A stretch of 64,000 nucleotides of DNA from Kiritimatiellia bacterium. GTDB lineage: Bacteria; Verrucomicrobiota; Kiritimatiellia; RFP12; UBA1067. The translations under genes and the position numbers were made by a program. The notes under the pieces are model-generated. The model had not been told where the DNA came from and searched no databases. It saw only the letters and a list, made by a program, of their open reading frames with translations. Numbering within the stretch: the first letter of the stretch is position 1; each line of letters starts with the position of its first letter. The stretch lies in NCBI GenBank assembly GCA_017542055.1, contig JAFXXW010000010.1, forward strand, positions 11,438 to 75,437. The letters are read 5' to 3'. Positions 1,708 through 26,337 of this stretch are shown here, one piece after another.

Positions 1708-3724
1708 GATAGTCATAACCGCCGCCAACGAAGCGCAGGCCAAGGGCTACCGGGCCCAGACCGCCGGCGACAGCAGGGTGATGGTTATTCCGGATCCGGG
1801 CGACCGGCGCGTGGGGAGCTTGGGCGCCACCGTCAACGCCATCCGGGAACTGGGGTTGGACCAAGGCAGGATTTTGGTTTGCCATTCCGGCGGCGACGCC
1901 AGACGCACGCCCGGCTATGCGGCGATGGGCAAGGCGTTCGTGCCGATGCGCGACGGACGCAGCATGTTCGAGCATATCGTGGAACACATGGAACAGTTGC
2001 CGTTGCCGGAAGGGATGCTGGTGGTGTCGGGCGACGTGCTGCTGACGTTCGATTACCGGGCCACCGATTTTTCGCGGCCGGGCGTGATCGGAGTGGCCTA
2101 TCCTGACAATGCCTGGCAGGCGCGCCGGCACGGGGTGTACGTGGAAAAGGACGGACGGGTGGTGGATTTCCTGCAGAAGCCGCAGGTGGACGAGGGGACG
2201 TATTTGATCGATACGGGGATAATGTTCATCGATCCGCCTACCGTAGCCAAAATGAAGACTTTGCCGGTGTCGGGCGACATCTATACCGAATTTCCCGCCA
2301 TGCTGCTGAAAGGTTTCGCGCCGTTCAGCGTGAACGTGTGCCCGAGCTGCGAATTTTTCCATATCGGGTCGTCGCGGGAGCTGCTGGAGCGGCTGGGCGA
2401 CGGCAATACGTATGTCGACAAGGCGTTCTGCCGGCTGGAACTTGCGGGCGGGAATATCGTGACCAACATTCCGCCCGGAAGATTCGAAAAGGTGGTGCTG
2501 GGACCGAACGAGTGCCTTACCGTGTTACCGCTCGAAAACGGCGAGTGGTACGATCTCAAGTACATGCTGGACGACAATTTCAAGACCGACGGACTGTGGG
2601 AAAAGCACGGGCTCGGGGAAAAGATGAAGCGGGTGGACCATGCGAGGCTTCTGGCCGTGCGCGGAACGGGCAGCGCCAAATACTGCAAGGTTTCGGCGCC
2701 GGTGCGGATCGATTTCGCCGGCGGCTGGTCCGACACGCCGCCCATTTGCGAACTGGAAGGCGGCGCGGTAGTCAATGCAGCGGTGTTGCTGAACGGCAAG
2801 CGTCCGATCGAGGTGGTGGTCAAGGAGCGCAAAGACCGTTTCGTCAAGATCGTTTCCAAGGATCTGGGCAAGCGCCGGCTGGTCAAGAGCGCGGAGGAGA
2901 TCGCCGACCATGCCGATCCGCACGACTGGTGCGCACTCGTGAAAAGCGCGCTCGCGGTTACCGGTTTCCGTTTCGGCGAGCGGGGCATCGACATCACGAT
3001 CAGCGCCGATCTGCCCAAGGGGTCGGGCATGGGTACGAGTTCCGTGCTGGGGGCGGCCACGATAGCCGCTTTGCTGGGCACGGTAGAGCCCGATCTCATC
3101 AGCCGGCTCACGTTGCAGCTGGAACAGGAGATGCACACGGGTGGCGGCTGGCAGGATCAGCTGGGCGGACTGGTGGGCGGCTTCAAGTTGCTCAAGTCCA
3201 TGCCGGGTAAGCCGCAACGGGTGCAGGTGAGCCGGCTCGAGCCGGACCGGGCATGGCTAAAGGAACTCGAAAAGCGCGGACTTTTGTATTTCACCGGCCA
3301 GAAGCGCATGGCCCGCAACATTTTGCGCAAGGTGCTGGCTTTCTATGCGGAGAATCCCCACGATTTCGGCAAGATTCTGATCGCCTCGCTCAAGTCCGAC
3401 GCCAAGAAGTGCGCCAAGGCGATAGAGCGGGGTGATTTCGACGCGTTCGTGGAGTCGCTGAACGGTTACTGGCGCGACAAGAAACTGCTGGATCCGGGTT
3501 CCACCAACGAACGCGTGGAGGAGATGATCGAATCGATCCGCCCCTTGATTTCCGCAGTCACGCTGACCGGTGCGGGTGGAGGCGGCTTCATGTTCATCGT
3601 GGCCAAGTCGCCGCGCGATGCGGCCAAGATCCGCAAGATGTTTACGGAAAATCCGCCCAGCAAGTATTCCCGGTTCTACGATTTCGCGATCGATCCGGCG
3701 GGAATGTCGATCGAGGTAGGTTGA
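1691..3724 (+). CDS. fucokinase-like / GHMP-kinase bifunctional sugar-1-phosphate salvage enzyme (Fkp-like)
   Basis: ATG at 1691 ([20 protein letters not shown]) lies in track ORF 1607..3724. The N-terminal half has SGDVLLTF, as in fucokinase-type domains. The C-terminal half has GHMP kinase motifs PKGSGMGTSSVLGAATIAAL and TGAGGGGFMF. Confidence 0.78.
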   Translation: MAAFDRIVITAANEAQAKGYRAQTAGDSRVMVIPDPGDRRVGSLGATVNAIRELGLDQGRILVCHSGGDARRTPGYAAMGKAFVPMRDGRSMFEHIVEHMEQLPLPEGMLVVSGDVLLTFDYRATDFSRPGVIGVAYPDNAWQARRHGVYVEKDGRVVDFLQKPQVDEGTYLIDTGIMFIDPPTVAKMKTLPVSGDIYTEFPAMLLKGFAPFSVNVCPSCEFFHIGSSRELLERLGDGNTYVDKAFCRLELAGGNIVTNIPPGRFEKVVLGPNECLTVLPLENGEWYDLKYMLDDNFKTDGLWEKHGLGEKMKRVDHARLLAVRGTGSAKYCKVSAPVRIDFAGGWSDTPPICELEGGAVVNAAVLLNGKRPIEVVVKERKDRFVKIVSKDLGKRRLVKSAEEIADHADPHDWCALVKSALAVTGFRFGERGIDITISADLPKGSGMGTSSVLGAATIAALLGTVEPDLISRLTLQLEQEMHTGGGWQDQLGGLVGGFKLLKSMPGKPQRVQVSRLEPDRAWLKELEKRGLLYFTGQKRMARNILRKVLAFYAENPHDFGKILIASLKSDAKKCAKAIERGDFDAFVESLNGYWRDKKLLDPGSTNERVEEMIESIRPLISAVTLTGAGGGGFMFIVAKSPRDAAKIRKMFTENPPSKYSRFYDFAIDPAGMSIEVG

Positions 3725-13234: not shown

Positions 13235-13971
13235 ATACGCTCATCACCGGTGCTTCTTCCGGAATCGGCCAGGCGCTCGCGTTCGCTTGCGCCAAGCGCG
13301 GCGACCGGCTGTTCCTGTGCGGACGCGACCGGGCCCGACTGGACGAGGTGGCCGCCCGGTGCCGCGAACTGGGCGCCAAGGAAGTGGCCGCCGAAACGGT
13401 TGACGTCACCCAGCCGGCCACCACGCGCGACTTTATCGAACGCGCCGACGAATTGGCCGCGCTCGACTTGGTGTTCGCCAATGCCGGAGTTTCCACCGGA
13501 GCCGAAACCGAACGCAATGTCCGCAATACTTTTTCGGTCAACGTGATGGGCGTGGTCAACACCGTCTTGCCCGCCATCGACCTCATGACGGAGCGCGGAA
13601 GGGGACAAATCGCCATCACCGCTTCCATTGCGGGGTACGGTCCCCTGTTCGCCTGCCCCAGCTACAGCGCCACCAAAGCTTGCGTCAAGACGTGGGGCCT
13701 GGCGTTGCGCGGCTATTTGAAGCCCAAGGGCGTGGGCGTATCGGTGATTTGTCCCGGCTTCGTCCGCTCGCGCATCACGGACCGGAACACCTGTCCCATG
13801 CCGTTTTTCATGGAGGCCGACAAAGCCGCCCAGATCATTCTTAAAGGCGTATCCGCCAATCGGGCGCTTGTCGCCTTTCCTTGGATCATGCGGTTCGGCG
13901 CGTGGTTCATGGGCGCGGTTCCGTATGTTTTGAGCGAATTCGTCAACCGCTTCCTGCCCAAAAAGAACTGA
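13231..13971 (+). CDS. short-chain dehydrogenase/reductase
   Basis: TGASSGIGQALA (TGxxxGxG), NAGV, YSATKACV (YxxxK). ATGA overlap upstream. Confidence 0.87.
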   Translation: MNTLITGASSGIGQALAFACAKRGDRLFLCGRDRARLDEVAARCRELGAKEVAAETVDVTQPATTRDFIERADELAALDLVFANAGVSTGAETERNVRNTFSVNVMGVVNTVLPAIDLMTERGRGQIAITASIAGYGPLFACPSYSATKACVKTWGLALRGYLKPKGVGVSVICPGFVRSRITDRNTCPMPFFMEADKAAQIILKGVSANRALVAFPWIMRFGAWFMGAVPYVLSEFVNRFLPKKN

Positions 13972-13973
13972 CC

Positions 13974-15161
13974 ATGCTGCTGTTGTCGATTTTGCTGGCC
14001 GTTGTCGATTTGGCGGAAGTGTTCGAACACGATTCCGCCTGGGACCGTCCGCCTTCCGCCTACACCAAGCTTTCGCACCGTCATGACCTGGAGTGGAAGG
14101 GCGCCAAGATCGTCGATTGGCGGCTCGTGCCGGAAGGGAGCGGCGTAGGGCGGGTGGAGCTCAATCTCTACAATCGCGGCGACGACAAGACGGGGGCGGG
14201 CATGTCCGAAGCGGAACTCAAGGACCTGCTGGAGCGGAGCATTCCCGGTATCGATCTGTCCAAGGCCGTGCGGCGCAAAATCAAGGCCGGCTCCTTCCAG
14301 TACGAATGTTCGAGCGACAAGTCCAAGCCCGCCATCGAAGCCGGCTGGGGCGTTTCCGACGGCAAGGTGGACTATTTGCGGGTGTCGCTGATGAAGTCGG
14401 CCAAGAAAAAGTCGGCCGTCCAAAAATCCGTTTCCGGCAAGGCGTCCAAGGCCAAAATCGCCGCCAATGTCCGCAAGGAATCGAACGGCGACGTGTGGAT
14501 AAACAACATCCCGATGGTGGATCAGGGCGACAAAGGCTACTGCGCGGTTGCCACTTGCGAACGCGTCTTGCGCTATTACGGCGAGACGGTAGACGAGCAT
14601 CAGCTGGCCCAGATGGCGGGCACTACCGCCAAAGACGGCACTTCCTCGTCGGCGATGAAGGAAACGGTCAAGACCATCGGCAGCAAGTTCCGGCTGGGCT
14701 ACAACGATATTTTCTCCGCCATCGCCTCCCGCAAGGACATCCTCAAGGACCTGGAGCTCTACAACAAGTCCGCCAAGGCGCTCAAGCGTCCGGAACTGGA
14801 CGAGCGCGACTTTTATGTCGGCAACACGTTCATGGTGCCGATGATGCGCGAGGCGATGGAGCCGGAGGTGCTCTTGCGGATGCGCGCCAAAGACCCCCGC
14901 TTCAAGAAGTTTGTCGCTTCCGTCAAGTCCCGCATCGACGAGGGCATCCCGGTCTTTTGGGGCGTCACCTTGGGGATTTTCCCCGAGCCCGACATCCCCC
15001 AGGCCAATGGCGGCCACATGCGGCTCATCATCGGCTACAACGTCAAGACGGAAGAATTCATCTTTTCCGACAGTTGGGGCGATCGCCACGCCTTCAAGCG
15101 CATGCGCGCCGACCAGGCCTTCGCCATCACCAACAACGCCTACACGCTCCGCCCCCTTTGA
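13974..15161 (+). CDS. secreted/anchored papain-fold cysteine peptidase, C39-like
   Basis: N-terminal hydrophobic MLLLSILLAVV. Candidate Cys/His/Asp triad in C39-like contexts: QGDKGYCAVATCERVLRYYG, GGHMRLIIGYN, FSDSWG. The N-terminal ~190 aa are unassigned. Confidence 0.7.
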   Translation: MLLLSILLAVVDLAEVFEHDSAWDRPPSAYTKLSHRHDLEWKGAKIVDWRLVPEGSGVGRVELNLYNRGDDKTGAGMSEAELKDLLERSIPGIDLSKAVRRKIKAGSFQYECSSDKSKPAIEAGWGVSDGKVDYLRVSLMKSAKKKSAVQKSVSGKASKAKIAANVRKESNGDVWINNIPMVDQGDKGYCAVATCERVLRYYGETVDEHQLAQMAGTTAKDGTSSSAMKETVKTIGSKFRLGYNDIFSAIASRKDILKDLELYNKSAKALKRPELDERDFYVGNTFMVPMMREAMEPEVLLRMRAKDPRFKKFVASVKSRIDEGIPVFWGVTLGIFPEPDIPQANGGHMRLIIGYNVKTEEFIFSDSWGDRHAFKRMRADQAFAITNNAYTLRPL

Positions 15162-15207
15162 TTGCGCCGCGAGGGGCGTTTTTCCGCATCGAACCGGCAG
15201 ATTTCTC

Positions 15208-15236
15208 TTGCTTTTCGGGCGGAAATATGATATAAT
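15208..15236 (+). promoter_or_regulatory. promoter cassette P2 (TTGCTT-17-TATAAT) for the giant gene
   Basis: ttgctt ttcgggcggaaatatga tataat. AAGGAG Shine-Dalgarno at 15259-15264, ATG at 15273. Confidence 0.68.
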
Positions 15237-15272
15237 ATTTATAAATATGATTAAAAGCAAGGAGCCTAACCT

Positions 15273-18200
15273 ATGAAGAGACTTTTGCTGGCCGTTTTGC
15301 TTGCAAGCGCGGGTTTGCATACTTTTGCAGCCGAATACGCTTTCGATTACCGCAATCCCCAAGCCTGGGCGGGGAAGCCGTCCTTGGCAGTTGGCGACCA
15401 GGTGGCGCTCACCCTCGCCGAAGATCTGGCCTTCACGCTCCGGATCGTGTCCGCGCCGCCTCCCGGCATCGCCGGCCAGTCGTTCATCGCGAATGTGGAG
15501 GGCGCAGGCGCGTCCGCCATCCTGAAGGCCACCAAGAAGGGTCTCCGGGTGACGATCGACGACTTCGAGCACTCCAAACTCTATACCGCCACCTATCGTG
15601 ACGGCGAGGTTAAGGTGAAGATCGATGATACGTCTTCGAGCGGACCGGAAGAGTGCGGCACTTGCGGCGAGTCGCTTGAATTGCCGGCCATCGAGACGAC
15701 TGACACCACTCCCGTTACGGCCAAACGCAAGCTCCTTGCTACAAGCGGCGATGCATTTCAGATGGCTGCACAGAAAAGCGTGGTCGATATTCTCGTGGCA
15801 TTCGATCAGGGGGCGAAAGCGTGGGCGGAAAATGTTAGCAACTGGGGTGGACAGACTGACGATTCCATCGAGGAATTCGCCGATTATGCCGTAGGCAAGA
15901 TGAATACGGTGCTTGCGAACTCGCAGCTTGATGACAAGTTTTGCTATCGGTTGGTTGGGGTCATTGAGATTGATGGCACATGGACTGCAATCAACAATGC
16001 ACTGCTCTTGAGCATGCGCGCTCGCGAGGGCGCGTTCGCAAAACTTTCGCAGTTGCGGGATAAGTATGGAGCCGATACAATAACACTCCTCGTCAATCGG
16101 ACGAGCGGCACGACTTCGGGCATAGGGTTCGAATATGACGAGAAGTACCAATACCCTTCGAGTTTTGATGGAATGAATTACGCCTGTAACGTGTGCGACA
16201 GCAACACTGTTTATAGCCGCTACACGATGAGCCACGAGACAGGCCATAACATGGGTTGCGGACACAGCAACCGGCAGGGCGACAATTCCGGTCCCGGACG
16301 CTTTTCGTACTCGTGCGGCTACCATTTCACGGATACCAGCAATGTCAAACGACACACGGTTATGGCGTATGAATACGCTGGCGACGGTGATAACGATAAA
16401 CACATTGCTATCCCATATTTCTCTGCCCCCGGTATCTCGCCAACGGAGTATGGATGCGCATTGGGCGTAGAGGGAATAAATGACAACCGCCAGACACTGC
16501 AAATGACCCATGCCGATATTGCCAGTCTGCGCGAACATGTTTTGCCGTACGACTGGGATGTAAAGTTTCTGGACAATGATGGCAACGAAATTCCGGATGG
16601 TACGTACTATCCGTCATCATGCAATGTGACTTTTGCCCACTCGAATCCGGATGCCAAAATCTATTATACGCAAGATGGCACAACGCCGACTTCAGACTCT
16701 AGCCATTGTAGCCCAGGAGATAAGATTACGGTTTATCTGTACTCGCCCAAGACGATTACCGCCTGTGCCGTAACGAACAGCGTTGCTATTTCTACGCGTT
16801 CGATAACTTTAAAGGGTGGCTTGACATGGAGCGGCGACGAGAACGGCTATGGCGTTTGGGCGAGTAACGACAGTTCGAAGACGCCTTGGAGTGGCGAACA
16901 CTTTGGCGGCGACCCTGTTGTATTCCCCGATTTGGCTGATATTGCTTGCGCGACTGTGATGGTGCAAGATGCGGTGTCGCCGGAATCCGTGTGGTTCAGG
17001 GCGTGCGATACGGGCTATGTTTTCGACAAGGGCTCGAATGCGGCGCAGATCAATGTGCCAGATACTGCCTTCGCTCCTGCTGGCGATGTCACTTTCAATG
17101 TACCGGTTAAGTTGGAGGACGCGGTTGCGTTCACCAATCAGACGGGTACTGCGCTTACGTTCAACGCCCCATTCGGGCAGACGATCGATTCGAATGGCGG
17201 ATCCTTTGCCGGCAAGGTCAACATTGGTTCATACGGCACTCTGACCGTTGCGCCTGGTGCAGGCAAGACGCAGACCTTGGAAAAACTCAATAATGACAAC
17301 TGGTACTACGCCACTTCGACCTTCCGAGTGGGTGAAGGTACGGTTGTGTTCAATGGCACAATCAATGGCGGCAACGGAGTGACTGGCCGTACCAAACTGG
17401 AAGTAGGTAATGGCGGCAGCCTCATCTTCAATCAGGGAGGAGGAACTGGCTATGATATGGACAATACCTCGCTTACTGTCGAAAAAGGCGGGACAGTCAC
17501 ATTCAACGACATGGAACTCCTGAAGCGAACCTTGTACCTGAATGGCGGTACCATCTATGTCAACCGATTCGATCTAATGAGCAATCCGGGCATTTATGTT
17601 ACTGACGACTCTGCAATTGAAGATAATACTGAAGGCTATATCTATCTTCGAGGTTCCGATTCGGAAATCAACGTCTCGGACGGCAAGACGCTAATATTCG
17701 GTATTAGGACCGACAACAGAACTGACACAGCTGGCAATGGCATCGTCAAGAAGGGTGGCGGTACGCTTGTTGCGAACAAAGAGCTGAAGCACTCTGGCGT
17801 AACTAAAGTTGATAGTGGCACTATTGAGGTCGGCTATTCGTCTGGTTCGACCGTGTACGGTCAGGGCTGGACAGTTGCTTCAAACTCGACGCTTCGCGTG
17901 AAGAGCGGTTGTTCACTGAAGGTTCCGTCGCTCACGCTAGACCCGACTTCCATCATATCTCTTCCTGCGGCAACATCTGCTCCATTGGTCGTAAACGGCA
18001 ATGTCGATTTGACGGAAGTCAAGCTTTCGATTCAGGATATCGGCGACCTGTCGCTCGGTGCCAGCTATCCGCTCATTTCGGCGACTGGCGAAATATCGGG
18101 ACTTAAGGATTTTATCCGCCAAGACTGGCCGCGTCCCGCTGACGGACTTGGCTGGAAAGTGGCGGTGTTGGATGGCGTCCTTACCGCTTCAATCGTGGAT

Positions 18201-21200
18201 ATTGCAGACGCCGATCCGTATATTGATTTCACAACCAATATCTCCGGTCTTCGTCCGACTATTCCTGAAGATGCTACCATGTCGTCAGCTGGCGGACTCC
18301 AGATTGGATCCTCGCCGATTGTGATTGACGGACTTACCACGAATGCAGTCGGCGTAACCCTTGATGTGACAATTGGCGAACCGACGGCTGCAGAAAGGAC
18401 TATTTGCTCTTGGGTTGTTGATGGCAATATCGCAAGATGTGTTGTCACCAACGGGGTGCTTGATTGTTTTCATGGCACCGATGGCCATGTTAAAAATGAC
18501 GTGGACTTCCTCACGCTCTCGCCCGGTCGCCATGTGATCAATGTCGGCTACAAATCGCTCAACGATACCACATATGGTGGGACGTTCGTTTATGTGGATG
18601 GAACACTTGCCTATCGTGCAGCCGGTCTCAGATGGAGCGACAAGAGCGTTTCTAAATTTACAGTCGGCGCAACCGCAGCCGATACTCCCGACAAGCAGCC
18701 GTATACGGGTCTCGTTGTGCACAATTTTGCCCTAATGAACGAATCTTCGTCCGACCCGCTCCCCAACATGACTTCGTCTGGAGGAACGGTTGAGTACGAC
18801 TACTTTGCCGGCAAGCCGCCATGCGTGTTCGCGCTAACGCCTGATGGCGCATTCGAGACCTACGGCGCTATTCTTTCCGGTGCTTTCTCCGGCCAATATG
18901 ACGCGCTCTCGGTTTCGATAGTCGCTTCGTTCCCTGCAAATGCCACCGGCACTATCGTCAGTTCGGCCGTGCTGGATGGCTACTATGGGTACTCCACCCA
19001 GGTGGAGTATCGCGGCAACGGAGTCTTGGCTTTCCGCGACAATGGCAACGGTTCCTTGATTGCGTCGGTTCAGGTCTCTGCCGACATGTCTACCGAGCAC
19101 CTGTACACCTTGACTTATACGAATGGCACCGGCTACAAGCTTTACCTGGACGGCACCGAGGTATTGTCCAATGAAGACCATTACAAGGGCAACAATATGC
19201 CGATTATAAACCGGGTCGTATTCGGCTGTGGCTACTGGACCAACTGGATGACTAGCTACAACGACAATCCCAATCCCATTTCCAACCTGAAGGTTTATGC
19301 CTCGCATATCGCGCTTGGGACGGACGATCGGACCGTCTCGGAAACTCCGGTGAAAGAAGCGACTGGCTATGATTCAGAAGAGCCGGATCCGGAGCCGCCT
19401 GCGACACCGGCTGTGGTGGATGTGCTGGTGGCGTACGACAACGGGGCGTACAATTACGTGACGAGCCGTAGCCGGACGCTCGAGGAGTTTGCCCAGACGC
19501 AGATCGAGAGGATGAACAAAGTGCTGGTCACGAACAAGCTCGACCGGTTCTACTCTTACCGCTTGGTAGGGGTCTGCCGCGTCAATGAAGGTTATTCGGA
19601 TATCAACAATGTCGCCACTCTAGTCGCGGAAGGGGAAGGACCTTGCGCTTCGCTCAGGGCGGCGCGTGAAATGTGCGGCGCGGATACTGTCACATTGTTG
19701 GTGAATACAAGCGGCAGCACGCTTGGCAACAGTCTGCAAATCGACTACCGGGATGACGTTCCCGGTCAGCACGACTGCGCGTACAGCGTGTGCTCGATTG
19801 CTTGGGTGGACTCCAACGAGCAGTACACGATGCTTCATGAAAACGCCCACACGATGGGCTGCGGACACGCCAGAGCGCAATATACCGAAGACGATTTGGC
19901 CCAGGATCCCGACAAGTACTCGTACGGCTACTATTTCACCGACGAAAACAGCGTAAATCGCCACACCATTATGGCTTACGGCAATAACGCCTCGCCGTAT
20001 TTCTCGACCACCTCAAGCGAGTTCGGCTACAAGCTTGGCGACAGTACCAACAACAATGCCCGGGTCTTGAAAGAAACGTGTGCGGATGTGTCCAGGTGGC
20101 GCGATAACGTGAAGCCCTTGGGCGATGTAGTTGCCGCAACCGATGAAGACGGCAACGAAGTCTTTTCCGGTCGTTTGTTTAAAGATACCTTGAAAGTTAC
20201 CATTACTGCGCCAGTCGAAAATGCAACACTTTACTATACGTTTGATGGTACCGACCCAACCTTGAGCAATTATTTCTCCACCCAGCCGTCTCCATTCACT
20301 TTCAATTTCAATGTTACCAGTAATCTCAAGGTGGCCTATTATGACGGGGATAAGCTGTCTCCTGTACGTACGGTCAAAGTCACCAAGTGCGACAATATTC
20401 CCGGTGAGGGCGTTTGGCAGACTAGTCTCAAGTTCCCTTGGGCGGTAGAGGGAGATACGATCCGCAGCTACAACCATACCGATTATTCGGCGAAGAACAA
20501 AAATTGCACCACGCCGCTCTCGGCAACCATTGAAGGCCCCAAGGTGCTTTCGTTCAAGCACAAGTCGTACTTCTTTGGCTCTGATCTAGGCAGCAACTAT
20601 TCCCACTTTGAGGTGTTGCTGGACGATTCGATCGTACTCTCCGCCAACAACTACAACCTCGAATGGAGCGACGACGTAAAGGTATCGATTCCGGCCGGCA
20701 AACATACGGTGCAGTTTGTCTACTTGCAACGGAATGCCATGAACGATTCTTCCGACTACAAGGACGGCGATCCTAAAGCCAACGATGCCGTGTGGCTCAA
20801 AGATATCGTACTTTCCGACCCGGAGGAGCCGGAATCGGCAGATCCCTGCGACACCTTCTTCGAGTGGACGCCTGGCAGTGCGCCAACCGGTTGGTTCACC
20901 GAATGGGGCGGCGAGGATCAAGGCGGCACTCATAATGTTGTCGCACCAGACGGTAGTATGCAGGATCTGTACGTTACGTACTATGATGGCGATAGCAATT
21001 CCCAGAAGTGGATTCCTTGGGAAAGCAATGCCAACCCCGAATCGCTTGACAACTACACCTTTATGGTGTACGGCAATATCGACGATGTCAATCCTTCAAC
21101 CGGCAAGCTGGCCGTTCTTTGGGATATGGGCTTCAATGGCAAGCAGAATACTATCCTGGCCAAGGATGCTGCCGGCAATGTCAAACTTATCCAGGCCAAC

Positions 21201-24200
21201 AGCAACGTTATCAAGCGGTGCATCAATGCCGGGCAGGTGGAAGGTTACCACCTCTTTACGGTCCGGTTCAGCACAACTAGCGGCGCATCGCTCCAGATCG
21301 ATGATGGCGTAATTTATTCGGATTCCACGTTCACCCAAGTTTCCGACAAGGGTTTCCAAGTCGGTTCGGTTCTAGGCGGATTGCCTGCTTCCTTCGATCG
21401 TGGCACCGGCTTTGTGGTCGTCAAGATGTTGGCGTTTGATACCGATTCCATTCCAGCATCGCAGTACCGGCAGCTCTGCGAGGAATATCCTGCTGTAACC
21501 AATCGCGTACTGGCGACAGTCGGCGAAACTGAGTATTACCGTCTTCAATATCTGCTGGACGATCTCTCATCCAATTCTCTCACTTTTACCGCAACCGATG
21601 AGATGGTTGTCGATGTTAACGGACAGACGATTTCTGCTGCGATATCTGGCGAGGAGTTCTCGTTGGCGGATAACGGCTTATTGGTTGCCGCTACCGGGGA
21701 AAACACCTATATTATTGGCCGCAAGGCCGAGAGCGCGGTGTTAAGGATTAGCGAGATTATGCCCAAGCCGACGGATGCGCAGAATCATGGTGCACTGGAG
21801 GGGATGGATGTGAACGGCCTTGAGAGCGGCTGGGTGGAGGTTGAGAACACATCGCCCGACAAGTGGGCCAACCTTGCCGACTACAAGTTCATACGTTCGA
21901 ACCGGGGCAAAAAGACGGGGCAGGCCGACTACGGCAACTTCCCGTCCGTATTGATCGCGCCGCATGGCAGGGCCATCTTCTATACGTCCGAACGCTACTC
22001 TAATAGTGCCGATATGTCCGTGAGCGCATGGGCGACACCGGACGAGGGCGGAGTCAAGCCGAAGATTTATACCGATCTCGGCAATATTCTCGTGTGGCCG
22101 GACAAGGTGAATCCCAAGAAGTCGCCGTTCGTGCGTCTCACCTACACGCCCAGCAATACGATTGTCGATACCGTAATCATTCCGAGCGACGTGCCGGAAG
22201 GGTATTCGATTATCGTTGGTGAGACAAAACCTGGAGAAGCCACCCAGCGTTGGCTCTGCCCCACCCCGACGAGAGGTACGGTAAATACCGATGCCGGTCT
22301 TGTGAAGATCGGTCCCAATGTCGGCCCGCTCTACGAACTTACTACCGGCAAGAAACACGACAGCGCAAGCGAATTTGCGCGTCCCGTGCCGACTGCCCAG
22401 CCGGGTGAGGACTACGAAATCGTTTTCTCGCTCAACCCGGTTATGAGCCCGACTGTCGCGGGCGGCTTCCGCGACGAAGATGCGATAGCGAGCATAACGC
22501 TTGTATATCGCACCGACCTCGATGACACTACGCTTGATTCAGTGCCGGTGAGATTGTCCACAGATGTCAACGACACCAAAGATTGGGGGCACACCTATAA
22601 GGCCTATATACCAGCCGATGCGCTTCCTGCTGCCGGGCATCTCGTTCAGTGGAAGTTCGAGATTACCGATGCAAGCGGCAATAACTGGACCTCGCCCAGC
22701 TTCAATAACAAGGATGATGGCTACGAGTGGTATGGTACGATAGTCGAGCCTGACCCAGAGACGCAGATGAGCGCGACGCTGCCGACTTGGCATATGTTCG
22801 CGGATAGCGAAAGCCTTGAGCAGATGGATGTGGATGCATCGGATCAAACGCTGGCGAACAACGCCCGCGTCGCAATCTACGACAGCTCGACGTCAAACTA
22901 CTACGACTATGTTCGAATCGACCTGCGCGGCAATACTTCGGCAAAATTCACGAAGAAAAGCCACGGCCTGAGATTCGCGAAGGCGCATCCCTTGACGATG
23001 ACGGATGTGGTGACTGGTGAGCAGATCGAGGAGATCCGCAAGACGTCGCTCATCAGCGAGTTCGCCGACCCGAGCTACATGCGCCAGATGATGGCGTTCT
23101 GGCTGTGGCGCAAGATGGGGAACCTTGTGCCGTTCGACTTCCCGGTGAGGTGCAACCTGAACGGCGAGTTCTATCAGCTCGCGTTCAACTCCGAGCGCTT
23201 CACCGACGAACTCATCGAGGATGTCTACGGACTCGACAAGTTCGGCTACGGCTACAAGAACGTGGGAACGCTAAAGAGCGGATCGGGAACGACGGCTGGC
23301 GGTATCGAAAAGAAGACTCCGGACGACGAGGACGAGTCGAATATCACGGTGCTCCAGAACGAGCTGCGCGCCAAGATTACGGCAGCACAAGATGTCTCTA
23401 GCTCGCCGGATGGTGGCGATAAGGGACTCAACAATGCCGACCTTACCAAGTTCGTGGTCCAGAAGTTCAATCTTCCCGCGTGGCTCAACTACCTCGCTTC
23501 GGCCCGCATCACTCAGGAGATGGACGATGTCTGGGCGAACGTCTGCGCCTACTACGACAATGCCGAGATGAAAGAGGGTGTTCGCGGCACTGGAACTTGG
23601 ATGCCGCTCGGCTATGATTTCAACCTTTCGTTCGGACAGTACTACTATAACGACATAAAGGATTACGGCAACAACCGCGAAGGCCTGATGTCGAATCAGG
23701 ATTGGTTCAAGTCTCATCCGTTCTATGGCGGCAACCGCGTCAAAGCATACCGCAACAGCAATATGGTTGGTGAGATGAACGGCAATGACGGGTTCGAGTC
23801 TGTCCTGCAATCCTCAAAGTTCCGCCGACTCTTCCTGCGCCGTTTGCGGACGCTGATGGATCAGGAACTGAAGGAACCGAGCACGGAAGAAGAAGATACG
23901 CCATTCATGGCCAAGATGCGCGAAATGGCCGATCTGATGCGCGCCGATGCCGCAGATGATACCAGCAAGTGGGGTAATGACACCTCTGACAACTCCATTG
24001 ACGTGTGGACTAAGCGTCCCGCTGATATGGATGCGGGTATCAACGATATCTGGGAACACTATGTCGTGCCGCGCCGCGAACACCTCTATGTGACGCACTC
24101 CGCAACCAACACGACCAAGACGATTGGCTACGGCTCCAACCTCAATGCCGGCATCCCCGAAGCGCAGAGTCCGATTGAGACGCTTGCCCCGAATATCTAC

Positions 24201-25502
24201 GTATCCAACCTCACGCCGCTTGATACGGAACAGGCGGAAGCGCTTGGCGTTGCCGGGCAGTTCTATGATACTAAGGTTATCGTGATCCGGAACGACAACG
24301 ACGAGGTTGTAGATATGAGCGGATGGCGGCTTGCGTTCTCGGTCGACTTCACGTTCCCCGCCGGCACCGTGTGCGATGCAAACGACTCTATCTACATCGT
24401 TGCCGACCGCCGCACCTACATCGAAGCGCATAACACGGAGCTGACCGACCAGGTGATCGTCGGCAACGCCACGTTCACGGGCGCCGGTCCCATCGCGCTT
24501 TATGATGCGGACGGCACGCTTGTCTATTCGGCAATCCCGCAGACGAATGAGCTCAAGTATCTGCGGCTTCATTCCTTCTACGGCAACACCCTTGATGGCG
24601 GCGACGCGGGCGAATGGTTCACGCTCACGAACATTTCCGATGCCGTCACGCTCGACTTGGCCGATGTCACGGTCTGCTTCCTGAAGCAGGGGGACGACCA
24701 CGATACGACTGGCCATTGCCATGTGACGCTGACGAACAAGAAAGGCAAGGGCGACGTAAAGCCGTTGAAGTCGTGGACAGCGCAGCAATTGGACTATTCC
24801 GACAAGGGCTGGTTGAAGATTCAGAACAACAAGCAGCAGATCACGATCTACGACAAGTACGGTTCGGTCTGCCAGTCGCTAATGGTGGAACAGAAAAAAT
24901 TCCCGCTGGCGTATGGCAATGGTGGCTATCTGGTATGTGATTCGACCGATGCAAGTGTTACAAAGAACTCTCAGTGGCATGCGGCGCTGTATGAACTTGC
25001 GAATGACGGCGAACTGAGCGAGCCGTTCTCCGCCGAAGACCAGGAGGTGGCAAACGAACTGGTCGCGACTGCAAAGCCTGTCTTGAGCGAGGAGGATATT
25101 GCCGCCGGACTTAACGAGCAGTTTTTGCAGTACTTGACGATAGTTGCAGAGCCAGTCGAGGGTTCGTCTGGGCAATACAAGGCGGTTGTGGACGTCAATC
25201 CTGCCACTGTCGAAAAGCCGGCAGTAGATACCTCGTCTGCAGAACCGATGGAAATCGAAGACGATACGGAAGACCCGGACAAGAAGCAGGTTAGCGTCTC
25301 CATCTCCAATGCCACTCCCGGTCTGTGGTATGGCTACGAAGTTTCCACCTCGCTCGGTGACGACCAGAACTTCCAAAACGATATCGGTTCGTTCAAGCGC
25401 GCCACTAGCGCTGCGCACAAGGTAACGGGGTCGCCTCGCGACAAGACCGAAACAAGCGCCTTCTTCCGGGTGAAGGTGCTTCCCGCCAAGCCGACCGAGT
25501 AA
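15273..25502 (+). CDS. giant secreted multidomain protein (3409 aa): 2x reprolysin-like metzincin, PATR beta-strand repeats, LamG-like domains, LTD-CotH-LTD
   Basis: - Signal peptide MKRLLLAVLLASAGLHTFA.
- HETGHNMGCGH (nt 16233-16265) with TVMAY Met-turn; HENAHTMGCGH (nt 19836-19868) with TIMAY.
- Chitobiase-C-like IYYTQDGTTPT and LYYTFDGTDPT.
- KKGGGTLVANKELKHSGVTKVDSGTIEVG (PATR-like).
- LamG-like TFVYVDGTLAY, GYKLYLDGTEV, ASLQIDDGVIY.
- LRISEIMPKP (lamin-tail-like).
- RIDLRGNTSAKFTKKSHGLRF (CotH).
- Uninterrupted 10.2-kb ORF. Confidence 0.9.
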   Translation: MKRLLLAVLLASAGLHTFAAEYAFDYRNPQAWAGKPSLAVGDQVALTLAEDLAFTLRIVSAPPPGIAGQSFIANVEGAGASAILKATKKGLRVTIDDFEHSKLYTATYRDGEVKVKIDDTSSSGPEECGTCGESLELPAIETTDTTPVTAKRKLLATSGDAFQMAAQKSVVDILVAFDQGAKAWAENVSNWGGQTDDSIEEFADYAVGKMNTVLANSQLDDKFCYRLVGVIEIDGTWTAINNALLLSMRAREGAFAKLSQLRDKYGADTITLLVNRTSGTTSGIGFEYDEKYQYPSSFDGMNYACNVCDSNTVYSRYTMSHETGHNMGCGHSNRQGDNSGPGRFSYSCGYHFTDTSNVKRHTVMAYEYAGDGDNDKHIAIPYFSAPGISPTEYGCALGVEGINDNRQTLQMTHADIASLREHVLPYDWDVKFLDNDGNEIPDGTYYPSSCNVTFAHSNPDAKIYYTQDGTTPTSDSSHCSPGDKITVYLYSPKTITACAVTNSVAISTRSITLKGGLTWSGDENGYGVWASNDSSKTPWSGEHFGGDPVVFPDLADIACATVMVQDAVSPESVWFRACDTGYVFDKGSNAAQINVPDTAFAPAGDVTFNVPVKLEDAVAFTNQTGTALTFNAPFGQTIDSNGGSFAGKVNIGSYGTLTVAPGAGKTQTLEKLNNDNWYYATSTFRVGEGTVVFNGTINGGNGVTGRTKLEVGNGGSLIFNQGGGTGYDMDNTSLTVEKGGTVTFNDMELLKRTLYLNGGTIYVNRFDLMSNPGIYVTDDSAIEDNTEGYIYLRGSDSEINVSDGKTLIFGIRTDNRTDTAGNGIVKKGGGTLVANKELKHSGVTKVDSGTIEVGYSSGSTVYGQGWTVASNSTLRVKSGCSLKVPSLTLDPTSIISLPAATSAPLVVNGNVDLTEVKLSIQDIGDLSLGASYPLISATGEISGLKDFIRQDWPRPADGLGWKVAVLDGVLTASIVDIADADPYIDFTTNISGLRPTIPEDATMSSAGGLQIGSSPIVIDGLTTNAVGVTLDVTIGEPTAAERTICSWVVDGNIARCVVTNGVLDCFHGTDGHVKNDVDFLTLSPGRHVINVGYKSLNDTTYGGTFVYVDGTLAYRAAGLRWSDKSVSKFTVGATAADTPDKQPYTGLVVHNFALMNESSSDPLPNMTSSGGTVEYDYFAGKPPCVFALTPDGAFETYGAILSGAFSGQYDALSVSIVASFPANATGTIVSSAVLDGYYGYSTQVEYRGNGVLAFRDNGNGSLIASVQVSADMSTEHLYTLTYTNGTGYKLYLDGTEVLSNEDHYKGNNMPIINRVVFGCGYWTNWMTSYNDNPNPISNLKVYASHIALGTDDRTVSETPVKEATGYDSEEPDPEPPATPAVVDVLVAYDNGAYNYVTSRSRTLEEFAQTQIERMNKVLVTNKLDRFYSYRLVGVCRVNEGYSDINNVATLVAEGEGPCASLRAAREMCGADTVTLLVNTSGSTLGNSLQIDYRDDVPGQHDCAYSVCSIAWVDSNEQYTMLHENAHTMGCGHARAQYTEDDLAQDPDKYSYGYYFTDENSVNRHTIMAYGNNASPYFSTTSSEFGYKLGDSTNNNARVLKETCADVSRWRDNVKPLGDVVAATDEDGNEVFSGRLFKDTLKVTITAPVENATLYYTFDGTDPTLSNYFSTQPSPFTFNFNVTSNLKVAYYDGDKLSPVRTVKVTKCDNIPGEGVWQTSLKFPWAVEGDTIRSYNHTDYSAKNKNCTTPLSATIEGPKVLSFKHKSYFFGSDLGSNYSHFEVLLDDSIVLSANNYNLEWSDDVKVSIPAGKHTVQFVYLQRNAMNDSSDYKDGDPKANDAVWLKDIVLSDPEEPESADPCDTFFEWTPGSAPTGWFTEWGGEDQGGTHNVVAPDGSMQDLYVTYYDGDSNSQKWIPWESNANPESLDNYTFMVYGNIDDVNPSTGKLAVLWDMGFNGKQNTILAKDAAGNVKLIQANSNVIKRCINAGQVEGYHLFTVRFSTTSGASLQIDDGVIYSDSTFTQVSDKGFQVGSVLGGLPASFDRGTGFVVVKMLAFDTDSIPASQYRQLCEEYPAVTNRVLATVGETEYYRLQYLLDDLSSNSLTFTATDEMVVDVNGQTISAAISGEEFSLADNGLLVAATGENTYIIGRKAESAVLRISEIMPKPTDAQNHGALEGMDVNGLESGWVEVENTSPDKWANLADYKFIRSNRGKKTGQADYGNFPSVLIAPHGRAIFYTSERYSNSADMSVSAWATPDEGGVKPKIYTDLGNILVWPDKVNPKKSPFVRLTYTPSNTIVDTVIIPSDVPEGYSIIVGETKPGEATQRWLCPTPTRGTVNTDAGLVKIGPNVGPLYELTTGKKHDSASEFARPVPTAQPGEDYEIVFSLNPVMSPTVAGGFRDEDAIASITLVYRTDLDDTTLDSVPVRLSTDVNDTKDWGHTYKAYIPADALPAAGHLVQWKFEITDASGNNWTSPSFNNKDDGYEWYGTIVEPDPETQMSATLPTWHMFADSESLEQMDVDASDQTLANNARVAIYDSSTSNYYDYVRIDLRGNTSAKFTKKSHGLRFAKAHPLTMTDVVTGEQIEEIRKTSLISEFADPSYMRQMMAFWLWRKMGNLVPFDFPVRCNLNGEFYQLAFNSERFTDELIEDVYGLDKFGYGYKNVGTLKSGSGTTAGGIEKKTPDDEDESNITVLQNELRAKITAAQDVSSSPDGGDKGLNNADLTKFVVQKFNLPAWLNYLASARITQEMDDVWANVCAYYDNAEMKEGVRGTGTWMPLGYDFNLSFGQYYYNDIKDYGNNREGLMSNQDWFKSHPFYGGNRVKAYRNSNMVGEMNGNDGFESVLQSSKFRRLFLRRLRTLMDQELKEPSTEEEDTPFMAKMREMADLMRADAADDTSKWGNDTSDNSIDVWTKRPADMDAGINDIWEHYVVPRREHLYVTHSATNTTKTIGYGSNLNAGIPEAQSPIETLAPNIYVSNLTPLDTEQAEALGVAGQFYDTKVIVIRNDNDEVVDMSGWRLAFSVDFTFPAGTVCDANDSIYIVADRRTYIEAHNTELTDQVIVGNATFTGAGPIALYDADGTLVYSAIPQTNELKYLRLHSFYGNTLDGGDAGEWFTLTNISDAVTLDLADVTVCFLKQGDDHDTTGHCHVTLTNKKGKGDVKPLKSWTAQQLDYSDKGWLKIQNNKQQITIYDKYGSVCQSLMVEQKKFPLAYGNGGYLVCDSTDASVTKNSQWHAALYELANDGELSEPFSAEDQEVANELVATAKPVLSEEDIAAGLNEQFLQYLTIVAEPVEGSSGQYKAVVDVNPATVEKPAVDTSSAEPMEIEDDTEDPDKKQVSVSISNATPGLWYGYEVSTSLGDDQNFQNDIGSFKRATSAAHKVTGSPRDKTETSAFFRVKVLPAKPTE

Positions 25503-25518
25503 TCGAACGGGAAACGAT

Positions 25519-26337
25519 ATGGAACGCATACTGCAACTGATCCGGGATACGAGCTCGAGTCTGAGCGAGGACGTAGTCAAGGCGCTCAAAAAGTCGTATA
25601 GACGCGAGGCCGAGGGCACGCCCGGAAAGGTGGTCCTCAAGACTATCTTGGACAACATCAAGCTCGCGGCCAAGCAGGGTTCCCCGATGTGCCAGGACAC
25701 GGGCACCTTGACCTTCTTCGTGGACGAGAGTCTGCGCCGCAAAGTGACTCCCGCCAAGATCAAATCTGCCGTCAAGGAGGCGACCAAACTCGGCTTTCTC
25801 CGCAAGAACACGCTCGAGGCCGTAAGCGGCAAGAGCTTCGACGACAACGTGTGCGAGGGGGCTCCCGTAATCCATTATTGCGAGAACCGAAATGACGAAG
25901 ACCAGGCGCAGGTGACGCTCCTTATGAAGGGGGGCGGGAGCGAGAATATGAGCCGGCAATACTCCCTCCCGGATGCGGACCTCAATGCGGGACGCGACTG
26001 GGAAGGCGTCAAAAAGTGCGTCCTCGATGCCGTCTACCGGGCACAGGGCTATGGCTGCGCGCCGGGCATTTTGGGCGTATGCGTGGGGGGAGACCGGGCC
26101 ACCGGCTACGAAACGGCCAAGGAACAGCTCCTGCGGAGCCTCGACGAAAAGCCGTCCCAGCTGGAGGCGGAACTTCTAACCCAAGCGAACGAGCTTAAAA
26201 TCGGTCCGATGGGCCTCGGTGGCGCCACCACGCTCCTAGGAGTGAAGGTGGCGGAGCGACCCCGGGTCCCCGCGAGCTTTTTCGTGACGGTTGCCTACAT
26301 GTGCTGGGCGGCGAGGAGAAGGAGCGTTGCGCTATGA
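25519..26337 (+). CDS. class I (Fe-S) fumarate/tartrate hydro-lyase, alpha subunit
   Basis: SPMCQDTGTLTFFV and KGGGSENMS motifs of Fe-S type hydro-lyases. Confidence 0.87.
   Translation: MERILQLIRDTSSSLSEDVVKALKKSYRREAEGTPGKVVLKTILDNIKLAAKQGSPMCQDTGTLTFFVDESLRRKVTPAKIKSAVKEATKLGFLRKNTLEAVSGKSFDDNVCEGAPVIHYCENRNDEDQAQVTLLMKGGGSENMSRQYSLPDADLNAGRDWEGVKKCVLDAVYRAQGYGCAPGILGVCVGGDRATGYETAKEQLLRSLDEKPSQLEAELLTQANELKIGPMGLGGATTLLGVKVAERPRVPASFFVTVAYMCWAARRRSVAL

Follow-up and report, generated by a model that had tools for sequence, protein, structure and literature searches.

CotH-family proteins are widespread beyond spore formers, in cellulosomes, fungi, and gut bacteria, and to our knowledge the roles known for them are limited to those of the Bacillus spore-coat kinase and of the Mucorales invasins, CotH proteins that bind host receptors. 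Fragilysin, with which the protease modules described below are compared, has an aspartate switch. In Bacillus subtilis CotH, residues D228 and D251 are catalytic, and their mutation inactivates the kinase (PMC7821199). Here we analyzed a 64-kb stretch of DNA from a Kiritimatiellia bacterium (contig JAFXXW010000010.1, positions 11,438 to 75,437; hereafter, the window), in which one gene, at window positions 15273-25502 on the plus strand, encodes a protein of 3,409 amino acids (aa). All features of this gene are given below in window coordinates and lie on the same strand. On balance, we favor a reading in which the product is a Sec-exported giant enzyme of ruminant-gut Kiritimatiellia, consisting of a double metzincin fused to a CotH unit and degrading proteins or glycoproteins.

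Homology shows the giant protein to be a fusion, both parts of which are also found as separate types of protein. Residues 34 to 1849 are collinear, at 52% identity, with residues 52 to 1876 of a stand-alone 2,346-aa protein from another Kiritimatiellia metagenome-assembled genome (MAG; JAZTWW010000060.1), which has both metzincins, no CotH or LTD domain, and a different C terminus. A family of ~1,450-aa single-metzincin proteins (P0124-P0140) is collinear with aa 1-975 only, at 47 to 55% identity. The remainder, aa ~1852-3409 or 2151-3409, is collinear with more than 100 stand-alone CotH/LTD proteins of 1,100 to 1,520 aa (57 to 80% identity). Homology to the mature forms of these proteins begins at aa 1852-1863 of the giant protein, and the collinearity begins just past their own signal peptides (residue 26 of P0028, residue 32 of P0038, and residue 28 of P0040). 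These boundaries place the fusion junction in an acidic, proline-containing linker, SDPEEPESADP (aa 1848-1858; 20814-20846).

The fusion recurs. Homologue searches were run with three segments of the protein, and the segment that spans the junction, used in an exhaustive HMMER search, returned P0151, P0153, P0154, P0155, and P0156 (3,254 to 3,652 aa). These lie on separate metagenome contigs, and each has the CotH core motif QEMDDVWAN together with a pair of HExxHxxGxxH sites; HENAHNMGCGH is kept in all of the fusion homologues. The junction is also crossed by P0118, a fragment on a 5.9-kb contig, and a scan of genome contigs with the junction region gave one locus only, L005, which holds the stand-alone dual-metzincin gene. 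P0155 and P0151 are collinear with the giant protein from end to end, with protease halves 38 to 39% identical and CotH halves 64 to 75% identical; this unequal divergence indicates that the fusion is old enough to have diverged and that the CotH half is under far stronger constraint. Judged by these alignments, the giant protein belongs to a conserved family of such fusions, which is small. An earlier note on this DNA had stated that no protein with this combination was known. That claim calls for correction: the full fusion occurs in at least five more representative proteins, its halves occur separately, and the NCBI record identical to the product (MBR4354106.1, 100%, from a Kiritimatiellae MAG) is already named "CotH kinase family protein." We found no description in the literature of a metzincin-CotH fusion or of a CotH core with variable heads.

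The protease half (aa 1-1849) contains two complete zinc sites, each with a Met-turn downstream, as the earlier note had recognized. Metzincin module 1 (aa 163-435; 15759-16577) scores above cut-off with Pfam Reprolysin_5, Reprolysin_3, and Reprolysin_4 and holds the zinc site HETGHNMGCGH (aa 321-331; 16233-16265) and the Met-turn TVMAY (aa 362-366; 16356-16370). Module 2 (aa 1374-1625; 19392-20147), identified by its paralogy to module 1 and by a second Reprolysin_5 stretch, holds HENAHTMGCGH (aa 1522-1532; 19836-19868) and TIMAY (aa 1565-1569; 19965-19979). A self-BLAST of the whole protein gave the identity match alone; tiling and masking exposed the paralogy of aa 163-473 and aa 1374-1663, which are 35 to 43% identical, in agreement with the earlier description of two paralogous modules. 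Alignments of relatives (18 and 30 sequences) show no variation in HExxHxMGCxH and hardly any in the Met-turn, whose T, M, and Y are conserved in at least 90%. Given these complete motifs, both modules are predicted to be zinc-dependent endopeptidases.

A phmmer search of the entire protein against PDB sequences gave no match, and matches to these required family profiles. The NCBIfam Mep72 model (NF052434) matched at an E value of 1e-22, with 80.4 bits against a cut-off of 645 and coverage of model positions 1-217 of 573, and the NCBIfam CpaA model at 1e-5, with 24 bits against a cut-off of 750. Because both scores fall far below their cut-offs, the two modules are classed from their sequences as reprolysin/M72-like metzincins at the superfamily level only. 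An AlphaFold2 (AF2) model of aa 1-1200, with a mean predicted local distance difference test score (pLDDT) of 72, comprises in order a beta-sandwich, a disordered linker containing CGTCG, the metzincin, a CHB_HEX_C sandwich, and a beta-helix-like region. Module 1 has an adamalysin-like alpha/beta fold in this model, with Foldseek matches to fragilysin, ADAM, and snake-venom metalloproteinases at E values of 4e-7 to 1e-4; the top matches were profragilysin/BFT, Bacteroides fragilis metalloproteinase II (MPII), and pro-ADAM17, and CpaA was also in the list. The same fold is predicted for module 2 from its ~40% identity to module 1.

The Foldseek matches to zymogens cover ~380 columns, which correspond to propeptide plus catalytic domain. 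AF2 and conservation delimit a putative propeptide at aa 20-160 (15330-15752), composed of a beta-sandwich (aa 20-120; pLDDT, ~70 to 85) followed by CGTCG (aa 128-132). In a 30-sequence alignment, Cys128 is invariant and C131 is at least 90% conserved, and distant homologues have a PCGV or RCGV motif around the Cys128 position. Since a beta-sandwich propeptide with an invariant Cys precedes the catalytic domain, module 1 is probably produced in zymogen form, with Cys128 as the candidate residue of a cysteine switch that keeps it latent. A Pro/Glu linker precedes module 2, which lacks a propeptide.

In the other half of the protein, the CotH kinase-like domain (aa 2549-2902; 22917-23978) matches Pfam PF08757 at an E value of 1e-20, with 74.6 to 80.6 bits against a cut-off of 23.8 and coverage of model positions 1-297 of 322. 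A profile of the family matches Bacillus cereus CotH (5JD9) at 9e-10. Residues D2751, N2756, and D2782 (23523-23618) do not vary among 35 sequences with identities as low as 23%; by residue count, D2751 and D2782 align to D224 and D247 of 5JD9, which a 4-residue offset converts to D228 and D251 of B. subtilis CotH. The earlier note had proposed an LTD-CotH-LTD unit, of which CotH and the C-terminal LTD (LTD2, aa 3000-3084; 24270-24524; PF00932, 41.4 to 53.9 bits against 34.3) exceed the Pfam cut-offs. The N-terminal LTD (LTD1, aa 2155-2290; 21735-22142) gave no direct Pfam LTD match when aa 2140-2310 were searched, but it aligns to the LTD2 profile in hhalign with 90.5% probability (E value, 1.4e-6), and four relatives (P0173, P0185, P0212, and P0264) have a Pfam LTD at the equivalent position; AF2 pLDDT is high over this domain.

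The CotH half opens with a ConA-like lectin-fold domain (aa 1859-2074; 20847-21494; pLDDT mostly at least 90). Its single-domain Foldseek matches were CBM40, a trans-sialidase lectin domain, and a pentraxin, with target-normalized template modeling (TM) scores of 0.5 to 0.6; neurotoxin Hc also matched, at a lower level. Of the LamG-like folds proposed in the earlier note, this domain is borne out by its fold, whereas a candidate in the protease half falls below threshold, as detailed below.

To see what else the CotH core is joined to, we surveyed 136 core-bearing proteins, a sample that is biased toward the query. Heads longer than 600 aa are present in 32 of the 136. Pfam finds two Peptidase_C10 domains in the head of P0173, a BNR_2 sialidase-like domain in that of P0168, two GDSL esterases in that of P0185, and LamG or a PATR beta-helix in those of P0212 and P0264, the PATR match being in P0264. 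One protein of 4,325 aa, P0177, has two complete LTD-CotH-LTD cores. Across these alignments the CotH unit is the slowly evolving part that defines the family, present alone or under other degradative heads.

The protein begins with a Sec-type signal peptide (aa 1-19, MKRLLLAVLLASAGLHTFA, with cleavage ahead of AEY; 15273-15329), which is the sole hydrophobic stretch of the protein and matches the cleavable-looking signal reported before. It has no lipobox cysteine, and a lipoprotein reading was rejected. Hydrophobicity and Pfam checks of the whole 3,409-aa protein turned up neither a transmembrane segment nor a lipobox nor an autotransporter barrel, and the translation shows no tail of the PEP-CTERM kind. 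Since no anchor was found, the earlier wording "surface-displayed" is unsupported; a secreted multi-enzyme, the other part of that description, is upheld by the Sec-type signal peptide and by two metzincin modules with complete catalytic motifs.

Several accessory regions separate these elements. Each metzincin module is followed by a CHB_HEX_C_1/Fn3_assoc domain (aa 441-503, 16593-16781, 37.6 bits; and aa 1637-1691, 20181-20345, 28.6 bits; Pfam cut-off, 22), which confirms the chitobiase-C-like motifs pointed out earlier. Next to the first of these lies an all-beta region of short repeated strands resembling a beta-helix (aa 520-980; 16830-18212; pLDDT mostly above 90), collinear with the ~1,450-aa single-metzincin family. 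The earlier note had placed PATR repeats in the protein. Neither Pfam PATR (PF12951), searched on aa 520-1010 at an E value of up to 5, nor NCBIfam gave a match, but a family profile of aa ~815-935 (17715-18077) matches the PATR-bearing IcsA passenger (5KE1) at 7.8e-6; a PATR-like beta-helix within aa 520-980 is thus plausible.

The domain at aa 985-1185 (18225-18827) weakly resembles the N-terminal domain of the CotH protein P0021 (BLASTP, 29% identity; E value, 2e-5); it has no Pfam match, AF2 gave a pLDDT below 35 over aa 983-1200, and the domain is absent from a relative at locus L004. It is followed by a LamG/ConA-like candidate domain (aa 1190-1350; 18840-19322), in which aa ~1228-1305 match Laminin_G_3 (PF13385) below threshold (19.5 to 21.7 bits against 27.6; E values, 2e-4 to 1e-3), as do, equally weakly, the homologous N-terminal domains of P0032 and P0120. 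No Laminin_G_3 match was found on aa 985-1185 or aa 1852-2160. The final domain of the protease half, a beta-sandwich by its AF2 strands at moderate pLDDT (aa 1710-1847; 20400-20813), has no Pfam match and is conserved in L004, L005, P0013, and P0014. In the L004 relative (L004:11800-12040; ERZ914901 scaffold_1338), the homologous giant gene is frameshifted at the equivalent of aa ~620 and is either a pseudogene or the product of an assembly error; aa ~985-1380 are missing there, and metzincin 2 stands directly after the beta-helix.

In the CotH half, the interval between LTD1 and CotH is a beta-rich region (aa 2291-2545; 22143-22907) that is conserved in the family and modeled mostly at pLDDT above 85, with no Pfam match. 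Past LTD2, aa 3095-3225 (24555-24947) are a possible third LTD-like domain, which has no Pfam match and aligns weakly to LTD1 in hhalign (30% probability; E value, 5e-4). The C-terminal domain (aa 3330-3409, from GLWYGYEV to FFRVKVLPAKPTE; 25260-25499) has neither a Pfam match nor a transmembrane segment and is conserved in 47 sampled proteins, as counted with a regular expression over the last 95 residues. An aromatic-aromatic-basic-V motif ~5 to 15 residues before the C terminus is also seen in otherwise unrelated secreted proteins of the clade. Instances are FFRVKVLPAKPTE in the giant protein (aa 3395-3409; 25455-25499), ARFYKVKVDFE, LFYKVNVSFTAD, and RFYRIVPWQ; besides the giant protein, the motif occurs in the L005 protein, P0124-P0140, and P0016-P0020. 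In profile comparisons the last ~15 residues alone align, weakly (27 to 32% probability), and homology of the C-terminal domains among the CotH family, the metzincin families, and distant homologues is therefore unsupported. The motif may represent a final strand that these proteins have in common or a sorting signal not yet recognized.

In the reading that we favor, the protein would be exported via Sec and act on extracellular proteins, probably glycoproteins of a mucin-like kind. Module 1 would be kept latent by its cysteine-switch propeptide; module 2 has no such propeptide. The Ig-like CHB_HEX_C domains, the PATR-like beta-helix, and the lectin-like sandwiches would space the two active sites and probably place them on large glycosylated substrates. 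The CotH-LTD unit would provide one and the same function to every head type, most likely binding to, or retention at, the substrate or the cell surface, possibly combined with phosphotransfer in view of the invariant catalytic Asp/Asn/Asp residues. Phosphorylation of extracellular substrates, raised as a possibility in the earlier note, counts among its unsupported points; any ATP-dependent Ser/Thr phosphorylation by the unit would have to operate outside the cytoplasm, where the Sec peptide places the protein, unlike Bacillus CotH. The glycoprotein substrate is a lead that draws on the sister heads, the CBM40-like fold, and a Peptidase_M66 match in P0155.

A number of observations weigh against this reading. 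The leads toward a glycoprotein substrate are weak, and the head types were seen in a sample of small size. The Peptidase_M66 match, above threshold in P0155, is below it in the giant protein (13.9 to 15.4 bits against 20.6). CBM40, a sialic-acid-binding module, is the best match of the ConA-like domain at the fold level only, with ~10 to 13% identity. Pfam leaves aa 985-1185 and aa 3095-3409 without a domain assignment, and beyond the Sec peptide we found neither a surface anchor nor a further secretion signal. The neighboring genes offer no functional clue. A kinase outside a diderm cell would have no obvious supply of ATP, and extracellular CotH proteins had no defined function as of late 2025 (PMC12774918).

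The scarcity of ATP at an extracellular location is also what lends interest to a rival view of the CotH-LTD half, in which it is a noncatalytic adhesin or scaffold that serves only to attach the protease heads to some ligand or to the cell envelope and phosphorylates nothing. CotH has Ig-like LTDs and a ConA-like lectin domain on its flanks, many unrelated heads sit on one core, and parallels exist in the Mucorales CotH invasins and in the CotH components of cellulosomes, the latter without known activity. Invariance of Asp/Asn/Asp in 35 members down to 23% identity would be unexpected for a pure scaffold, however, and the core is constrained much more strongly than the heads; we regard this view as doubtful, if deserving of attention. 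At the other extreme, the ConA-LTD-CotH-LTD unit might be a dedicated C-terminal platform, in Kiritimatiellia and Lentisphaerae, for interchangeable degradative heads, with its kinase-like site performing an extracellular phosphotransfer coupled to glycoprotein breakdown; it could, for example, phosphorylate Ser/Thr-rich substrates, or phosphorylate a cell-surface polymer and then retain the enzyme there. We think this elaborate proposal unlikely, but if true it would amount to a new modular enzyme-display system and to the first function assigned to extracellular CotH proteins. A host-directed toxin, whose metzincins would cleave epithelial surface proteins in the manner of fragilysin and whose lectin and CotH parts would bind host cells, is suggested by the structural matches of the propeptide and catalytic domain, the best of which are profragilysin/BFT and B. 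fragilis MPII, and by the receptor binding of Mucorales CotH proteins. The likeness to these structures is at the fold level only (9 to 13% identity), though, the contig record names suggest an origin in ruminant-gut metagenomes, we know of no pathogenic lifestyle in this bacterial group, and the heads of the sister architectures include esterases and sialidase-like domains, which are typical of nutrient acquisition. We consider a toxin improbable.

Two further alternatives concern how the protein is displayed and whether it exists as a single chain. An autotransporter-type passenger, exported via its own C-terminal barrel and retained on the outer membrane, would fit the profile match of aa ~815-935 to the IcsA passenger and the Pfam PATR match in the head of P0264. 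The Pfam PATR model itself does not match the giant protein, though, the beta-helix lies mid-protein rather than beside a translocator, and the protein has neither an autotransporter barrel nor a membrane-spanning segment. No autotransporter family matched at the C terminus, which is neither hydrophobic nor barrel-like and is instead small, soluble-looking, and common to CotH proteins; such a passenger is very improbable. The open reading frame (ORF) could also be an artefact, either an assembly chimera, as the earlier note had allowed, or an adjacent gene pair merged through sequencing error. The GC content at third codon positions (GC3) is 0.65 in the giant gene against 0.78 to 0.90 in its neighbors, and the homologous gene of the L004 relative contains a frameshift. 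However, low GC3 is also found in the relatives' genes and is thus a family trait, the order of parts is kept in at least five diverged full-length homologues, and the separate fragment P0118 crosses the junction. Three contigs encode the exact 3,409-aa product, and two others encode a variant that differs by two conservative substitutions. Because the same protein or its two-residue variant is present on five contigs and diverged full-length homologues exist, the ORF is not a chimera, and the artefact explanation is essentially refuted already.

The gene itself is, as reported before, an uninterrupted ORF of 10,230 nucleotides (nt), with 3,409 codons and no internal stops. The AAGGAG ribosome-binding site that had been noted is read directly from the sequence at 15259-15264, 8 nt 5' of the ATG, and the start codon is supported by the alignment of the homologue P0155, which begins at residue 1. 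The gene had also been credited with its own promoter cassette, which was not confirmed: a sigma-70 promoter scan upstream made no call, and by eye there is a perfect TATAAT with a -35 element matching at 3 of 6 positions. The names of the contig records (XIEF21 and TONG22) suggest that these derive from ruminant-gut metagenomes.

The giant gene's neighbors are housekeeping genes, among them ABC transporters and ThiC, with a C39-like peptidase upstream and fumarate hydratase and then LigA downstream. We found no conserved neighborhood, as P0021, L005, and the window locus each lie beside different housekeeping genes. The Peptidase_C39_2/C39-like gene (13881-15161, plus strand; 53 bits) ends 111 nt upstream on the same strand; it is probably unrelated to the giant gene, because it is not beside the homologues examined. 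Downstream (25503-26337), the fumarate hydratase alpha-subunit gene begins 16 nt past the giant gene's stop, and by eye there is no terminator-like hairpin between the two. Given this short gap without a visible hairpin, the giant gene may be cotranscribed with housekeeping genes. The dip in GC3 recurs in a stand-alone CotH gene (L002:10001-14431; 0.71 against 0.79 to 0.92) and in a stand-alone dual-metzincin gene (L005:4844-11884; 0.55 against 0.77 to 0.87); the dip might reflect horizontal movement, weak selection on codons, or the composition of these proteins, which are rich in Thr, Asn, Ser, and Asp. A 941-codon ORF on the minus strand (13713-16538) overlaps both the upstream gene and the giant gene, the latter over its first 1.2 kb; in GC-rich DNA, such an open frame has most likely arisen by chance. 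No tRNA and no Rfam family were found in the 64-kb window.

The individual domains of the giant protein are all known already, and its novelty is architectural, not mechanistic. What the earlier note saw in the sequence is for the most part correct, and its interpretation is borne out in part. What makes it of interest is that one highly conserved CotH-LTD unit has been repeatedly fused to hydrolases, with catalytic residues that are fixed while the heads diverge. This yields the testable hypothesis that the unit serves a function common to extracellular degradative enzymes, for which natural constructs exist, such as the core by itself or joined to a protease or an esterase head. Little is known of the means by which uncultured Kiritimatiellia of ruminant guts degrade protein, and the giant dual-metzincin family adds to that repertoire.

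Among described systems, the Bacillus CotH kinase (PF08757; 5JD9/5JDA) is matched over a near-complete Pfam model, with the aligned catalytic Asp pair and the intervening Asn conserved. That protein, however, has ~360 aa and resides in the mother-cell cytoplasm of a spore former, whereas the CotH domain described here lies in a Sec-exported 3,409-aa protein of a nonsporulating host, flanked by LTDs and fused to proteases. The cellulosomal CotH-dockerin proteins, such as Ccel_1101, offer a precedent for extracellular CotH modules in a degradative enzyme system (PMC12774918); they are assembled through dockerin and cohesin in Firmicutes and fungi, in contrast to the giant protein, which is a covalent fusion without a dockerin. 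On the protease side, fragilysin, B. fragilis MPII, and the ADAM proteases are the best structural matches (Foldseek E value, 4e-7; TM score, ~0.5, target normalized), share HExxHxxGxxH and the Met-turn, and agree with the Pfam Reprolysin placement of the modules, but their identity to the giant's module is only 9 to 18%. Fragilysin is, moreover, a single-domain toxin of ~40 kDa, and in place of its Asp switch the giant's family has an invariant Cys. Pseudomonas aeruginosa Mep72 and Acinetobacter baumannii CpaA are the best NCBIfam matches, with CpaA also in the Foldseek list, but their scores fall well short of the equivalog cut-offs (80 against 645 and 24 against 750).

Further close counterparts are the stand-alone proteins that correspond to the two halves. 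Stand-alone metzincin proteins have the propeptide, metzincin, CHB_HEX_C domain, and beta-helix in the same order but continue into other C-terminal regions, without CotH or LTD. The stand-alone LTD-CotH-LTD proteins of Kiritimatiellia and Lentisphaerae (such as P0021, P0028, and P0038), which are annotated "CotH kinase family protein," are collinear with the CotH half, including the C-terminal FFRVKVLPAKP tail; they have no metzincin, and to their architecture the giant protein adds an N-terminal protease half of 1,850 aa.

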